Positions 1,420 through 18,271 of a stretch of DNA of 64,000 nt are shown piece by piece. The position numbers were made by a program, and so were the translations under genes. The stretch is from the sequence record OP688485; one strand, given 5' to 3'. This stretch comes from Escherichia phage EP_H11. How positions within the stretch are numbered: position 1 is the stretch's first letter; each line of letters begins with the position of its first letter. The notes beneath the pieces are model-generated. The model did no database searches and was not told the origin of the DNA. It saw only the letters and a list, made by a program, of their open reading frames with translations.

Positions 1420-1437
1420 GGAGGACTTCGGTCCTCC
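1420..1437 (+). other. stem-loop with UUCG tetraloop (GGAGGAC-TTCG-GTCCTCC)
   Basis: 7-bp perfect stem; downstream run only moderately T-rich. Confidence 0.5.
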
Positions 1438-1469
1438 TAATTCTTCCCCTTTATAATTTGGAGCTAATT

Positions 1470-1844
1470 ATGACTAACCAAGAATTCATTCAAAAGTTCG
1501 ACGCTAAAACTGCTTTCGAGAACATGCTGGCAGAAGTAGAATCAATGATCAATATGTCCGGTTTGGTGGCTACTCCAGAAGTCCGCGAAGTACGTGGTCA
1601 AGTTTACGTGAGCGGCTCTACCGAGGACGTTATGTGCCAGATGAACATCCCAATGTTCAAATCCATGTGGATCCATATCTCCGGAGGCCCTCTGGATGAT
1701 AAAACTGGTGCATGGTTCGAAGTTGGTTACCGCTACGAGCATCACGATGGTGGTTCGAATGGTCACAGTATTGCCCAGTTCGTGGTTGATATGAGTGGTG
1801 AAATCACGGTTCGTCGTCCGACTTTCACTAAAGAAGCAAAATAA
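1470..1844 (+). CDS. hypothetical protein
   Basis: ORF track start 1458 is TTG; in-frame ATG at 1470 with GGAG 7 nt upstream. Confidence 0.5.
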   Translation: MTNQEFIQKFDAKTAFENMLAEVESMINMSGLVATPEVREVRGQVYVSGSTEDVMCQMNIPMFKSMWIHISGGPLDDKTGAWFEVGYRYEHHDGGSNGHSIAQFVVDMSGEITVRRPTFTKEAK

Positions 1845-1854
1845 GGGGATCCTC

Positions 1855-2073
1855 ATGAACAAGCTCCGCTACCATCTTGCTGTCCAGGTTAATGGTGTCC
1901 ATTCCTTCACCATCCAGGGTAATGCTCCGAGTGCTCGTAAGCTGATAGAGCAATTCCAGATGTGGTACAAATTTATGGAGCCGGAGCTTGCTTACCAGGA
2001 GATAGAGTACCTGCCTATGCGTGCTGACACACGCGATGCTAAAACAGAACTTTCCGTAACTCGTATTGCATAA
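1855..2073 (+). CDS. hypothetical protein
   Basis: internal ATG of ORF 1795..2073 preceded by AAGGGG; upstream part overlaps previous gene. Confidence 0.45.
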   Translation: MNKLRYHLAVQVNGVHSFTIQGNAPSARKLIEQFQMWYKFMEPELAYQEIEYLPMRADTRDAKTELSVTRIA

Positions 2074-2085
2074 CTTGGTGATAAA

Positions 2086-2499
2086 ATGAAGAAATTAATT
2101 GCTGCTTCTTTGATTCTGGTATCCGTCGCAGCCTGTGCTGGTAAAGATCCTCGTGTGGCTTCCGCTATGGAAGCCGACGTCATTACTGCACTCTTGGCTA
2201 AGTCGTATGTGGAAGAGTGTCCAGAGTACAGTCTTGCTGAAGTGTTGTACTCTGCTAAAGAGGCGATGGTCCTTCCTGTTATGGATCATGGTCATAAGTC
2301 AGCTATCGTCCAGTTTAATGGTATAGGGTCTGATGGTAAGCCAGCAGTTATCCGTTCCCTAATTCATCTGGATCCTGTGGAAGTGGTTACTACTCTCTCG
2401 GTAGAGAAAACTGGTGCGATTAAAGAAGATCTCAGCGACGCTAACGAGCTGATCCTTCCGTCCCTGTGCACCGTAGCAGCAAATAAGTCTTTCCGTTAA
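2086..2499 (+). CDS. putative lipoprotein (signal peptide with lipobox V-A-A-C)
   Basis: N-terminus MKKLIAASLILVSVAAC: basic n-region, hydrophobic core, lipobox cysteine. Confidence 0.6.
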   Translation: MKKLIAASLILVSVAACAGKDPRVASAMEADVITALLAKSYVEECPEYSLAEVLYSAKEAMVLPVMDHGHKSAIVQFNGIGSDGKPAVIRSLIHLDPVEVVTTLSVEKTGAIKEDLSDANELILPSLCTVAANKSFR

Positions 2500-2530
2500 T
2501 ATAGTATAATCTAATCTGTTAGGAGTTATT

Positions 2531-2842
2531 ATGAAAAACATCGATATCGCTAAACTGTTCCTTATCTCTCGTTTGTATCGTCTGTCTAATTCTTCCTCTA
2601 TGATCCTGTGGTATATCTCCGGAACCGCTTCGGGAGCCACGATCAACGAGCTTACAGTCTTCGCTGATAGCGAAGCATCACTAGGTCAAATCCCTCGTAC
2701 GTCCATCTACTATGTGTGTAATAAGTTAGAGAAGGATGGCTGGTTGATCAAAACGACTACTGCTTCGGAAGAGGGTGGTCGTCCGTGCAATCTGTACTCT
2801 CTGAGCCATCGTGCTCGTTTCTTCCTCGACCTGAATAAGTAA
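2531..2842 (+). CDS. putative winged-helix transcriptional regulator (PadR/MarR-like)
   Basis: 103 aa; AGGAG RBS; segment KLEKDGWLIK...GGRPCNLYSLS resembles winged-helix recognition helix plus wing. Confidence 0.4.
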   Translation: MKNIDIAKLFLISRLYRLSNSSSMILWYISGTASGATINELTVFADSEASLGQIPRTSIYYVCNKLEKDGWLIKTTTASEEGGRPCNLYSLSHRARFFLDLNK

Positions 2843-2851
2843 GGTGCTGCT

Positions 2852-3232
2852 ATGTCCATATATTTCCAGGCAGTAGTTGGTGGTCACGTAGTCGATGAAG
2901 ATAACGTCAAGATCGTAACGACGAGTCTTGTTGGGTTACGGGATACTATTAACAAGGATGACCTCCTCCCGATTCACTACAACACTATTGTAGACCAATT
3001 AATTCAGGTAGAAACCGAAGATGGTCTATGCGGGAGCTTAGCGGAGCGAGTTGCTCAACCTATAGATTTGCTGGGTCTGTCCTTAAGGACCTCGGCTCTT
3101 CTGGATGAGCAACACGAGAATCTGACTGTGGATCAAATTAAGTTCCTGGTTAAATTGTTGAAGATGCTGTCCGCCTTAGCTGCAATCAGTCATACCTATA
3201 CGCTAATAACAACAAATCTAATGTGGAGCTAA
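2852..3232 (+). CDS. hypothetical protein
   Basis: 126 aa ORF in dense plus-strand early block. Confidence 0.45.
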   Translation: MSIYFQAVVGGHVVDEDNVKIVTTSLVGLRDTINKDDLLPIHYNTIVDQLIQVETEDGLCGSLAERVAQPIDLLGLSLRTSALLDEQHENLTVDQIKFLVKLLKMLSALAAISHTYTLITTNLMWS

Positions 3233-16303: not shown

Positions 16304-16305
16304 TT

Positions 16306-16845
16306 ATGAACAATAATCGTAATGTAGTGGAAGAGACTCTGGAGTTAATCAACAATCTCTTCCGCAGTAAGTTAAGTGGTGATCTCAATGCTATGGAGTT
16401 CACCATGAGTCGTAAAGAAGTAGCAGACATCCTCAATCATGTTAAAATGTCGATCGCGAATAACTGTGTAGCTATTCCTGATGGTCTTCATCCGGATACT
16501 CGTGAGCTGGTTCTGGATTTCGCTGGGAAGATGGCTAAGAAGCTACATAAATCCCAGATTAAGTACGGATTCACCAACGGATGGCGTCATCCTAACTGGG
16601 ATACGGCTAAGGGTAATGATCAGTTCGAAGATCCTACCCAGTGCATCATCGCATTTAGCCACCATATCGATAAGGGTGATCCTGTTGATGTGGCTAATTA
16701 TTGTGCCTTTATGGACTGGCATGGGTGGCAGACTAAATACCTAAATACATGCCAGACTACTAAAGATAAAAAGGAAGTTAGAATAGCATCTGAAGCTGGG
16801 TACGGAACCGATTATGTTGGTCGCATAGGAGACATGCCTCAGTGA
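16306..16845 (+). CDS. hypothetical protein
   Basis: 179 aa ORF. Confidence 0.45.
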   Translation: MNNNRNVVEETLELINNLFRSKLSGDLNAMEFTMSRKEVADILNHVKMSIANNCVAIPDGLHPDTRELVLDFAGKMAKKLHKSQIKYGFTNGWRHPNWDTAKGNDQFEDPTQCIIAFSHHIDKGDPVDVANYCAFMDWHGWQTKYLNTCQTTKDKKEVRIASEAGYGTDYVGRIGDMPQ

Positions 16846-16853
16846 ATAAAATA

Positions 16854-17069
16854 ATGATGATGGGTATACTCGAAAATATTGTAACCCTTATCTGCATGAC
16901 TGTTCTAGTATTGGGCCTTTATTATATGGGAGCATCATGGTGGTCAGCTATACCTGGGTTATTGGTATTCAATCTTAGTTCTGTTAAGTATAAGGAAACT
17001 AAGTCTGTTGGTTACCAAGAGAATACCACACCAACTGGGGAGATTGCTGCTCCTCCTAAGGACAGATAA
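16854..17069 (+). CDS. putative small membrane protein
   Basis: two hydrophobic helices; ORF track start 16842 is GTG, first ATG is 16854. Confidence 0.4.
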   Translation: MMMGILENIVTLICMTVLVLGLYYMGASWWSAIPGLLVFNLSSVKYKETKSVGYQENTTPTGEIAAPPKDR

Positions 17070-17407
17070 TGGAACAATTCCGCATTGAATTAAAGGTATG
17101 GAGCAGCCTTATCGGGGAACGCCCTCCGGAGGGAGACCCAAGATGGGAGACTGCCTACTGCATCTTACTGGATAATAACGAAGAGCACTGTACTTTCGAT
17201 AAAGAAAAGGCTACTTTGGTTACTTATGAGCGTCTGGATGAGTTAAATCTATTCGGTTTAGCTACAAGATGCCGTAATTTCCTCCGTATGGCAGACTGGG
17301 AACTGGGTTCTGTTAACATAATTAAGCTAATTGACCCTGAGTTTATCCACATAAATATAACGATAGATAATGACCCTGAGGAGTTCGGATGCCATACTAC
17401 CATGTAG
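17069..17407 (+). CDS. hypothetical protein
   Basis: 112 aa ORF. Confidence 0.45.
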   Translation: MEQFRIELKVWSSLIGERPPEGDPRWETAYCILLDNNEEHCTFDKEKATLVTYERLDELNLFGLATRCRNFLRMADWELGSVNIIKLIDPEFIHINITIDNDPEEFGCHTTM

Positions 17408-17955
17408 TTAAATCTGGAGATACGATGTCTGGTATTGCAGAATTGTATCGTTGTCGATTAGAGGATGTGGCTAAGGCTAACAAAGCTACTCACCCTAATC
17501 CTGGCCTTATTTACCCAGGTGATCGTCTGGTAATTCCAGACTCCAGATCTTCTGGTATTTATCTGACTATCAAGAATGATATGCATGTTTCTGCACTTCA
17601 TTACGATACGGCTGTAGAGCAGTTAGAGAAGCAGATAACCGATTTACTACAGACCAAAGCTCGGGTAATGAAGGATCATATGAATCGTCTGAATAATATT
17701 CAGTCTAGTCATTACCATACTCATTACCTAACTAAGGTAACTACTAAGCCAGATGGTTACCACGATACTAAACTGGATGTTCGCCAGTATTGCCAGCATT
17801 GTGGTGCTGAGCTCAATGGCATAGATCGTAAATTCTCTGATATGATACATATTGGAGTAATGAACGAAACTGGCCAGCCGATCACTAATAAGAATGGCGA
17901 AGGCCATAATGAGGATACCATATATCCTGGTATGAACTACAATAAGACATTTTAA
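17389..17955 (+). CDS. LysM domain-containing protein
   Basis: N-terminal YHVVKSGDTMSGIAELY...IYPGDRLVIP matches the LysM peptidoglycan-binding motif. Confidence 0.55.
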   Translation: MPYYHVVKSGDTMSGIAELYRCRLEDVAKANKATHPNPGLIYPGDRLVIPDSRSSGIYLTIKNDMHVSALHYDTAVEQLEKQITDLLQTKARVMKDHMNRLNNIQSSHYHTHYLTKVTTKPDGYHDTKLDVRQYCQHCGAELNGIDRKFSDMIHIGVMNETGQPITNKNGEGHNEDTIYPGMNYNKTF

Positions 17956-17965
17956 GGAGATAACT

Positions 17966-18199
17966 GTGGATCAAGAATTAATGGGTGGGGAAGAGGATGT
18001 ATTGTACAGACTCTTCTGGTTCGGACCAGCTACTGATGGAGATCTTCCGTCTAAGTCAGGTGCGGCAAGTCTGGTAGATAAGGGACTAGCTACATGGTTC
18101 CAAGGTAATGGTACTTGCCCTAAGATTTACGGAGACTGCAATATGTGTATGCTTACATCCTCAGGTTTGGATGTTGCCAAAGCTAAATATATTAAATAA
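17966..18199 (+). CDS. hypothetical protein
   Basis: 77 aa ORF. Confidence 0.4.
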   Translation: MDQELMGGEEDVLYRLFWFGPATDGDLPSKSGAASLVDKGLATWFQGNGTCPKIYGDCNMCMLTSSGLDVAKAKYIK

Positions 18200-18235
18200 C
18201 CGCTCTTTCTAAGGGTCGAAAGGCTGTTAAACTGT
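18200..18235 (+). promoter_or_regulatory. conserved early-block motif copy C
   Basis: CCGCTCTTTCTAAGGGTCGAAAGGCTGTTAAACTGT. Confidence 0.5.
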
Positions 18236-18248
18236 AGAGGTTATTCCT

Positions 18249-18271
18249 ATAGAGCATCTGATGGTGCTCTA
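18249..18271 (+). other. hairpin sharing ATGGTGCTCTATG core with 14102-14124
   Basis: TAGAGCATC-TGAT-GGTGCTCTA. Confidence 0.45.

Follow-up and report, generated by a model that had tools for sequence, protein, structure and literature searches.

The RNase III sites (R-sites) of phage T7 are intercistronic hairpins of an Escherichia coli phage, located between a stop codon and the next ribosome-binding site and sometimes after a phage promoter. They consist of an AU-rich lower stem, an internal loop, an upper stem of 9-11 bp and a terminal loop of 3-5 nt, with folding energies of -21 to -25 kcal/mol. The determinants described for E. coli RNase III are an 11-bp helix with GC at position 1 of the proximal box (pb1), AU/UA at pb2, AU at pb3 and AU/UA at pb4, and a stringent U.G pair at position 2 of the distal box (db2), GC/CG being disallowed at pb2 or pb4 (PMC1540722). 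The target site lies about 11 bp from the distal box in an interrupted helix of about two turns and 20-22 bp (PMC3867540, PMC1540722); the ideal substrate has about 22 bp, and single-strand cuts at internal loops leave stabilising 3' hairpins (PMC3867540). Intergenic stem-loops are also part of the promoter-early stem-loop (PeSL) cassettes of T4-type phages, where they act as terminators (PMC2839356, PMC4122927). Here we analyse the hairpins found between early genes in a 64,000-nucleotide stretch of Escherichia phage EP_H11 (record OP688485), referred to as the window. Four of them, designated composite hairpins, closely resemble T7 R-sites; we consider, with moderate confidence, that they are T7-type processing sites for host RNase III in early and middle polycistronic mRNA, and that two others, hp9565 and hp1420, are terminator-type. 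The hairpins are thus a known kind of signal in a little-studied phage.

Composite hairpins and their likeness to T7 RNase III sites

The early genes of EP_H11 occupy positions 1-27650 on the + strand, and a late block extends over 27678-63839 on the - strand. A first-pass annotation had proposed a single family of six short stem-loops in the early intergenic regions, united by UUCG-type loops and a shared 13-mer. Folding recovered all six hairpins where they had been placed and with the loops described. All are on the + strand, in intergenic positions between a stop codon and the next Shine-Dalgarno sequence or ATG of co-directional genes. The UUCG loop is closed by C-G in the hairpins at 1420, 8313 and 9565, and by U.G in that at 15654. 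On the + strand of 1-27650, four UUCG hairpins with a stem of at least 7 bp were observed, against a mean of 0.057 and a maximum of 1 in 300 dinucleotide shuffles. The fold z-scores of the six hairpins ranged from -3.9 to -6.1, and 0/200 shuffles folded equally well. A chance origin of the hairpins is excluded.

The description as short stem-loops holds for hp1420 and hp9565 (Table 1). On the contrary, the remaining four represent just the upper part of composite hairpins, each of about 48 nt and 20 bp and thus roughly two helical turns, with energies of -22 to -24 kcal/mol and z-scores of -4.3 to -6.1 when folded with their flanks. Each composite is built from an AU-rich lower stem of 8-10 bp, a small internal loop and an upper stem of 10-11 bp, resulting in helices of 19-21 bp (8+1+11, 10+10, 8+1+10 and 10+11) with the internal loop 10-11 bp below the terminal loop. 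In three composites, the lower stem includes the upstream stop codon in its 5' arm, and the Shine-Dalgarno sequence begins at, or shortly past, the 3' arm. Because several pairs are G.U, the antisense strand of the composites folds only to -11 to -15 kcal/mol, which indicates that the structures have been selected in the mRNA sense. No U-run follows the complete helix of hp8313, hp14102, hp15654 or hp18248, and the composites are therefore not canonical terminators. Elsewhere, the window does contain canonical hairpin-plus-U-run terminators, four on the + strand (908-944, 4542-4562, 21677-21698 and 27639-27675) and one on the - strand (58211-58239). One more hairpin of the composite class, hp24540, was found beyond the range of the first-pass annotation; its base, UAUUG/CAAUG, is like that of the family.

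Table 1. Intergenic hairpins and repeated elements of EP_H11, with folding energies (kcal/mol) and matches to the T7 R-site covariance model.
Feature	Position	Strand	Structure	Fold	T7 model (rank; bits; E)	Flanking signals
hp8313	8302..8350	+	lower stem CAGUGAUA/UAUCAUUG, small internal loop, 11-bp upper stem 8313-8338 (UAUAGGACAUC-UUCG-GGUGUCCUAUG), cUUCGg loop	-24.1, z -4.5; antisense -14.3	1; 26.7; 2.6e-4	stop codon 8305-8307; Shine-Dalgarno GAGGA 8350-8354 overlaps last stem base
hp14102	14090..14137	+	10-bp AU-rich lower stem, internal loop UC/UAU, 10-bp upper stem 14102-14124 (GAUGGUGCUC-UAU-GAGUACCAUC), UAU loop	-23.6, z -6.1	3; 20.5; 0.013	stop codon UAG 14092-14094 in lower stem
hp15654	15642..15689	+	8-bp lower stem, internal loop, 10-bp upper stem 15654-15677 (UAUAGGGUAU-UUCG-GUGCCCUAUG), UUCG loop closed by U.G	-22.0, z -4.3; antisense -11.1	4; 17.2; 0.1	stop codon UAG 15644-15646 in lower stem
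hp18248	18237..18284	+	10-bp lower stem, 1x1 mismatch, 11-bp upper stem 18248-18273 (UAUAGAGCAUC-UGAU-GGUGCUCUAUG), UGAU loop	-24.1, z -5.6	2; 25.6; 5.4e-4	3' end meets Shine-Dalgarno
hp24540	24540..24567	+	intercistronic, 12-bp stem, UACG loop	-19.5, z -5.4	5; 14.6; 0.5	no U-run
hp9565	9565..9592	+	8-bp GC-rich stem, cUUCGg loop; stem-loop 9565-9584 (AGGGAGAC-UUCG-GUCUCCCU), then UAUUUUU	-14.1, z -4.3		tail UAUUUUUA; 17 nt before next ATG
hp1420	1420..1437	+	GGAGGAC-UUCG-GUCCUCC, 7 bp	-13.4, z -3.9		after first gene of unit; tail UAAUUCUU
AAAGGCTGTTAA motif sites (motif scan)	906, 6067, 13024, 18219, 19616, 22331, 23406	+				
Motif copy CCGCTCTTT-N-GAAAGGCTGTTAAAnTGT	18200..18235	+	candidate phage promoter			directly 5' of hp18248
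Second repeated element	window 1020-1125, 4518-4630; L003 1-85; L004 2990-3070; L080 3421, 6894, 7243, 29551					

The likeness to T7 R-sites was quantified with a covariance model built solely from the T7 sites R0.3, R0.5, R1, R1.1, R1.3, R4.7 and R18.5. The coordinates of these sites were taken to be those of Dunn and Studier 1983; in each of the seven, the distance to a conserved GGCCUU is the same, which supports the assumed positions. When folded, the T7 sites showed the architecture and stability of the EP_H11 composites. The model was run with filters off on both strands of the window (128 kb); its E-values are rough. Its five best matches were the four composites and hp24540, all on the + strand, and the next match scored 14.4 bits. 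Neither hp1420 and hp9565 nor other stable hairpins of the window were matched. The suggestion that several hairpins without U-run are RNase III-type or mRNA-stabilising elements rather than terminators thus gained support from ranks 1-5 of the model, and likewise from invariant pairs at proximal- and distal-box positions of E. coli RNase III (PMC1540722). From the sequence evidence, four hairpins are likely RNase III-type and the remaining two terminator-type.

Read from the base, the stems of the family formed by hp8313, hp15654 and hp18248 run U.G, A-U, U-A, A-U, G-C, three variable pairs, A-U, U.G and C-G. With the G-C block as the starting point of the alignment, the proximal box and db2 are occupied by invariant pairs and the tolerant middle by the variable ones. 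All three hairpins have G-C at pb1, A-U at pb2, A-U at pb4 and U.G at db2, in agreement with the published determinants at these four positions; their pairs at pb3 and db1 are not optimal.

The similarity extends to the sequence of individual stems. T7 R1 (CAGGUCAUC-UGCG-GGUGGCCUG) and hp8313 (GGACAUC-UUCG-GGUGUCC) are nearly the same hairpin, with the same top four pairs followed by G-C, G-C and A-U beneath, and the upper stem GGGUAU/GUGCCC is common to T7 R0.3 and hp15654. When hp8313 was compared by BLAST with 50,697 phage records, the best match outside the lineage with genomic context (27/32) was in the T7-like Yersinia phage PYPS50, between genes 1.2 and 1.3 and right after a T7-type promoter, which is the position of R1.3. 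Separately, a 24-nt core of hp8313, TATAGGACATCTTCGGGTGTCCTA, was found 24/24 in Vibrio phage vB_VhaS-tm (L083, 601-624) and in two other Vibrio phages. In these unrelated siphoviruses the copies are terminator-like, with a U-rich tail, and the match was judged uninformative and probably due to convergence.

In addition to host, intercistronic location, architecture and stability, the EP_H11 composites share with T7 R-sites a CAUC...GGUG top with a U.G pair, and a G-C pair followed by an A/U-rich base. They differ in having UAUAG/CUAUG at the stem base where T7 sites have AAGG/CCUU, upper stems that exceed those of T7 by 1-2 bp, and smaller internal loops. The phages themselves are unrelated: EP_H11 is about 111 kb long, carries genes for a multisubunit RNA polymerase and probably has hypermodified thymidine. 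EP_H11 and its relative vB_EcoM_IME392 have been grouped with phages having YerA41/SP-15-like DNA polymerases and probable thymidine hypermodification (PMC12686479; bioRxiv 10.1101/2025.03.26.645540).

Conservation, covariation and probable recombination

The DNA ligase encoded in the window is 100% identical to that of EP_H11. The phage IME392 is the sole close relative of EP_H11 in the phage collection, with 93-94% nucleotide identity; in its annotation, genes for the RNA polymerase beta and beta' subunits lie just upstream of the region corresponding to the window. Positions 15702-65000 of its record, the remaining 49 kb of the genome, are referred to as L080. More distant relatives were reached via protein look-ups: L003 and L004, whose ligases are 74% and 43% identical to that of the window, respectively; L075 and L076, with a flanking protein 66-69% identical; L077, a 113-kb genome; and L078. 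In IMG/VR, a ligase scan gave no match and a scan for the AAAGGCTGTTAAnnTGT motif gave single chance matches only, indicating that EP_H11 has no relatives in that collection.

All six hairpins are 100% identical in IME392, in comparison with 93-94% identity for the early region overall, and hp24540 differs only in its loop. As a consequence of this identity, the comparison of the six hairpins with IME392 yields no covariation signal. Such a signal was obtained from the distant relatives. In the L003 ortholog of hp14102, 8/20 pairs are changed, three of them on both sides, and none is broken. In L075 and L076, hp18248 retains its upper stem with the loop GUAAU, and its lower stem is different in sequence yet paired. 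A single pair of the L077 ortholog of hp8313 is altered, from A-U to G.U. The T7 model recovers every ortholog in L003 and L075-L078. In L080, it gave nothing above 14.5 bits.

The loops behave differently. UUCG is replaced by UUAG in the L078 ortholog of hp15654, the loop of hp24540 is UACG in EP_H11, UGAG in IME392 and UGCG in L077 on an unchanged stem, and that of hp14102 goes from UAU through AUA to UCCG across relatives. In the L003 ortholog of hp9565, AGGGAGC-CUCAGU-GCUCCCU, the tail is still UAUUUUU, and the U-run is also kept in L077. Conservation of loop sequence among orthologs, as expected under selection, was not found. Since orthologous loops differ and stems stay paired, the loops are free to vary and the helices are not; UUCG is a thermodynamic choice made throughout the phage and not a recognition motif.

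Covariation was also observed among paralogs. The hairpins hp8313, hp15654 and hp18248 share C-UAUAG...CUAUG-U, with 11/11 pairs formed in each of six sequences. In the middle of the stem, two pairs show compensation on both sides, and the pairs that never vary are U.G, A-U, U-A, A-U and G-C at the base and A-U and U.G near the top. The same architecture is present in hp14102 without the CUAUAG...CUAUGUG motif. As a bare string, CTATAG-N16-CTATG is not enriched (3 vs 2.0 expected, with one mismatch), and the paralog family is defined by structure plus sequence, not by the string. A regex and hairpin scan of L080 revealed no more CUAUAG-type members.

The 13-mer ATGGTGCTCTATG noted as common to two hairpins has exactly two copies in the window, at 14103 and 18261, and the shared run in fact extends to 14 nt (GATGGTGCTCTATG). 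It forms the 5' arm and loop in hp14102, and the end of the loop and the 3' arm in hp18248. A shared 13-mer is unremarkable across 64 kb, where we estimate about 30 chance pairs, and is notable only because both copies sit in hairpin arms. In relatives, the copy at 14102 is interrupted (L077) or missing (L003); the 13-mer is best explained as a relic of duplication (paralogy) or of recombination among the hairpins. Altogether, the grouping of all six hairpins into one family by UUCG loops and 13-mer does not hold: loops vary among orthologs, the 13-mer is not kept at 14102, hp9565 is a hairpin-plus-U-run terminator and hp1420 is terminator-like, neither of the two being matched by the T7 model. 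In a separate observation, the change of the hp14102 loop in L077 (6556-6558; window 14112-14114) from UAU to AUA is an exact inversion on an unchanged stem, the mark left by template switching or by inversion of a hairpin loop.

Where relatives differ by inserted or deleted genes, the difference starts precisely at an edge of hp15654, hp18248 or hp14102 (L078 125-328 and 2804-3344; L003 6320-6330). At hp15654, homology with L078 is interrupted between 15688 and 15690 by a 200-bp insert holding a foreign gene; in the same relative, an extra gene lies right downstream of hp18248. In L003, the gene upstream of hp14102 is missing and the UAG-plus-hairpin is retained. Furthermore, the L078 copy of hp18248 (2700-2770) is chimeric, with a window-type 5' flank and an L075-type 3' flank. 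The chimera and the edge-aligned indels point to recombination within or at the hairpins, which we regard as a by-product of conserved sequence and not as their function. Marking the junctions of gene insertion, loss and swap between close relatives is a trait that these conserved intergenic stem-loops share with PeSL cassettes. In contrast to the latter, they lack a sigma-70 component (no sigma-70-like site was found at the hairpins), and only hp18248 is paired with a promoter-like motif.

Proposed processing and alternative explanations

According to the processing model, host RNase III would bind the 10-11-bp upper stem of the composites, with the conserved G-C, A-U, U-A and A-U pairs at its base acting as proximal box and the U.G pair near the top as distal box. 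By the T7 register, the cut is predicted on the 3' side, at the edge of the upper stem and two nucleotides beyond pb4 (CUAUGU^), which would place it at 8339/8340 in hp8313, 15678/15679 in hp15654 and 18274/18275 in hp18248; for hp14102, alignment to the model predicts 14127/14128. The upstream mRNA would be left with a very stable, often UUCG-capped 3' hairpin blocking 3' exonucleases, and the downstream cistron would become a separate mRNA with its ribosome-binding site free. Since internal loops are smaller than those of T7, both strands might be cut, as may be the case where the loop is minimal (hp18248). The structures, their sense-strand specificity, their conservation and covariation and their similarity to T7 sites were observed, and cleavage, cut position and stabilising effect are inferred.

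Several observations weigh against this model. In the T7 model, hp15654 (E 0.1) and hp24540 (E 0.5) are not significant singly. The family has U-A instead of A-U at pb3 and C-G instead of U-A at db1, although T7 R0.3 and R1 have C-G at db1 as well. In hp14102, a G-C pair occupies the position beside the internal loop that acts as a catalytic antideterminant, and there is no U.G at db2, so that this hairpin could bind RNase III uncut. The density of sites is also low, with 4-5 in about 111 kb vs 10 in the 40-kb T7 genome. Finally, the Vibrio copies of the hp8313 core show that hairpins of this sort can emerge or be employed in other roles.

Among the alternatives, the one that fares best, although we hold it to be unlikely, is that the composites are never cut and work as passive structures: barriers to 3' exonucleases, 5' stabilisers, or insulators that free ribosome-binding sites. 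In its favour are the very stable upper stems with UUCG or UNCG caps, a Shine-Dalgarno sequence always just beyond the helix, and the free drift of the loops, which would be expected if stability alone mattered; hp18248, directly 3' of a candidate promoter, could be a 5'-terminal hairpin. However, a passive barrier has no need of a constant helix of about 20 bp or of an AU-rich lower stem, and it leaves unneeded the invariant U.G and the G-C/A-U/U-A/A-U block at the exact positions of the RNase III boxes. Other equally stable hairpins of the window, moreover, are unmatched by the T7 RNase III model.

More doubtful is a phage-specific circuit of RNA processing or regulation, going beyond mere sites for host RNase III, in which a phage factor or the phage's own polymerase would read the U.G-flanked CUAUAG...CUAUGUG stem, alongside the AAAGGCTGTTAA motif present in about 24 copies. 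If true, it would show how early expression is organised in a host-polymerase-independent coliphage with hypermodified DNA.

The composites might also be termination or pause signals of the phage multisubunit RNA polymerase, for which no U-run would be required. The beta and beta' genes annotated in IME392 and the location of the hairpins at gene boundaries agree with this, as does the depletion of sigma-70-like promoter sites, which over 1-20000 reach about half their number in shuffled sequence (21 vs 40.6 ± 7.4) and fit a phage relying little on host polymerase. Nevertheless, many canonical U-run terminators are present in the same genome, including that at the convergence point 27639-27675, indicating that the U-run type is in use. 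No promoter-like motif follows hp8313, hp14102 or hp15654; after hp8313 there is none before 13005, and efficient termination there would silence the downstream genes. Termination, moreover, leaves the similarity to T7 RNase III sites unexplained, and we consider it quite improbable.

Equally improbable is that the CUAUAG...CUAUGUG hairpins are operators for a phage RNA-binding protein acting as translational repressor, or targets of a phage endoribonuclease. Three paralogs with invariant base and top and compensated changes between, placed immediately 5' of ribosome-binding sites, would suit such a factor, and most early proteins lack a recognisable function. On the other hand, neither the scan of 20 early proteins nor the precomputed Pfam list of the 20-kb L077 locus revealed an RNA-binding or RNase III/dsRBD domain, and the determinants of host RNase III already explain the conserved positions; hp14102, without the motif, shares the architecture. 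A phage-encoded RNase III or dsRNA-binding protein was likewise discarded as a candidate, there being none among the 20 early proteins scanned or the precomputed L077 Pfam matches.

A role at the level of DNA, either as linkers for modular recombination, for which PeSL cassettes offer a precedent (PMC2839356, PMC4122927), or as extruded hairpins serving as promoters or origins, would accommodate the indels and gene losses at the hairpin edges and the chimeric hp18248 of L078, but it is highly improbable because structures that rely on G.U pairs are much weaker as DNA or on the opposite strand, compensatory changes keep a pairing that recombination alone would not require, and no sigma-70 promoter is associated with the hairpins. 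DNA hairpin promoters of the N4 type were ruled out because the stems depend on G.U pairs.

If processing by RNase III is confirmed, T7-style sites would cut early polycistronic mRNA in a phage of about 111 kb unrelated to T7, where they would have arisen by convergence or acquisition. A classic mode of processing that depends on the host would then be known from one more phage lineage, with precise cut positions open to testing, and transcription units could be annotated more easily in an almost uncharacterised group. The current understanding of RNase III and phage gene expression is unchanged by these findings. In practice, a covariance model trained on a handful of T7 sites can serve to detect candidate RNase III sites in other coliphages.

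Terminator-type hairpins and other intergenic elements

The hairpin hp9565 was picked up by the terminator scan, and its sequence identifies it as a putative intrinsic terminator or attenuator; it is probably leaky, since the gene cluster behind it has no promoter-like motif of its own ahead of it. Its GC-rich 8-bp stem and its UAUUUUU, conserved in relatives, are those of intrinsic terminators, in contrast to the four composites, which lack a U-run and lie inside operons needing read-through. The shorter hp1420 passes a lenient terminator scan and is borderline by the terminator criterion; its weak U-tract suggests a weak terminator or a 3'-end stabiliser, and it is too short for RNase III.

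Extra-stable C(UUCG)G tetraloop hairpins were reportedly first described in mRNA of phage T4 (Tuerk et al. 1988). A review of them is available (PMC4371310). Like those of T4, the EP_H11 hairpins occur in phage intercistronic RNA; they are enriched over chance, and the same loop caps terminators of IME392. In EP_H11, however, C(UUCG)G is a stability device only, replaced in orthologs by UUAG, CUCAGU or GUAAU, and defines no functional family. Three more cUUCGg hairpins, each followed by a U-run, were observed in L080 at 33313-33338, 29649-29670 and 25090-25111 (same strand as the + strand of the window), indicating that the UUCG loop is the general choice of this phage for terminators. At the convergence of the + and - gene blocks, a 15-bp hairpin flanked by an A-run and a T-run (27639-27675), with compensatory stem changes in L077, is probably a bidirectional terminator.

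Analysis of the intergenic regions also revealed the AAAGGCTGTTAA motif, with eight sites in the window within one mismatch (0.34 expected), seven of them exact + strand copies. A further 17 sites are present in L080, so that a genome carries at least 24 copies, all of them on the same strand. Extended, the consensus reads approximately CCGCTCTTTTG-N-TCGAAAGGCTGTTAAAnTGT. The motif directly follows stop codons, contains a small hairpin (CUUUUG/CGAAAG) and is kept in L003, L004, L075 and L078, including the relative whose ligase is only 43% identical. It is a strong candidate for a phage polymerase promoter or a terminator-promoter cassette. A hairpin comes immediately after several of the copies, as in phi1.1A/R1.1 and phi1.3/R1.3 of T7; hp18248 itself starts 2 nt past the conserved instance AAAGGCTGTTAAACTGT (18219-18235). 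The idea that TATG could be a phiKZ-like late promoter core was ruled out by the GC-rich stem, the RNA covariation and the existence of this far better promoter candidate.

A second repeated intergenic element comprises TTATTTTTCAAATAAACGA, AAAGCCCGTTCTTTTGG and a GC-rich hairpin, in some copies TATAATCTAATTT, and lastly a ribosome-binding site. It is conserved across the lineage and may be an early promoter/leader or a small RNA. Both the AAAGGCTGTTAAAnTGT motif and the AAAGCCCGTTCTTTTGG elements are candidate promoters.

A search of the whole window against Rfam at gathering thresholds gave no match, and no tRNA was found. A gap of 532 nt without convincing open reading frame was observed at 18830-19361 (+), with identities of 98% in IME392, 95% in L077 and 78% in L075. 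RNAalifold predicted 140 pairs in this gap, 17 of them compensated on both sides, and a search against Rfam over 18600-19450 with E up to 1 gave no match. On the basis of this prediction, the gap is a candidate for a new structured phage RNA of about 450-500 nt.

Pfam matches were obtained for some early proteins, namely PinA peptidase inhibitor (8582-8998, 37 bits), NADAR (21010-21666, 95 bits), an Rv2179c-like 3'-5' exoribonuclease domain (22374-23084, 69 bits) and, just at the cutoff, an Acb1-like anti-CBASS protein (54-557, 27.5 bits).

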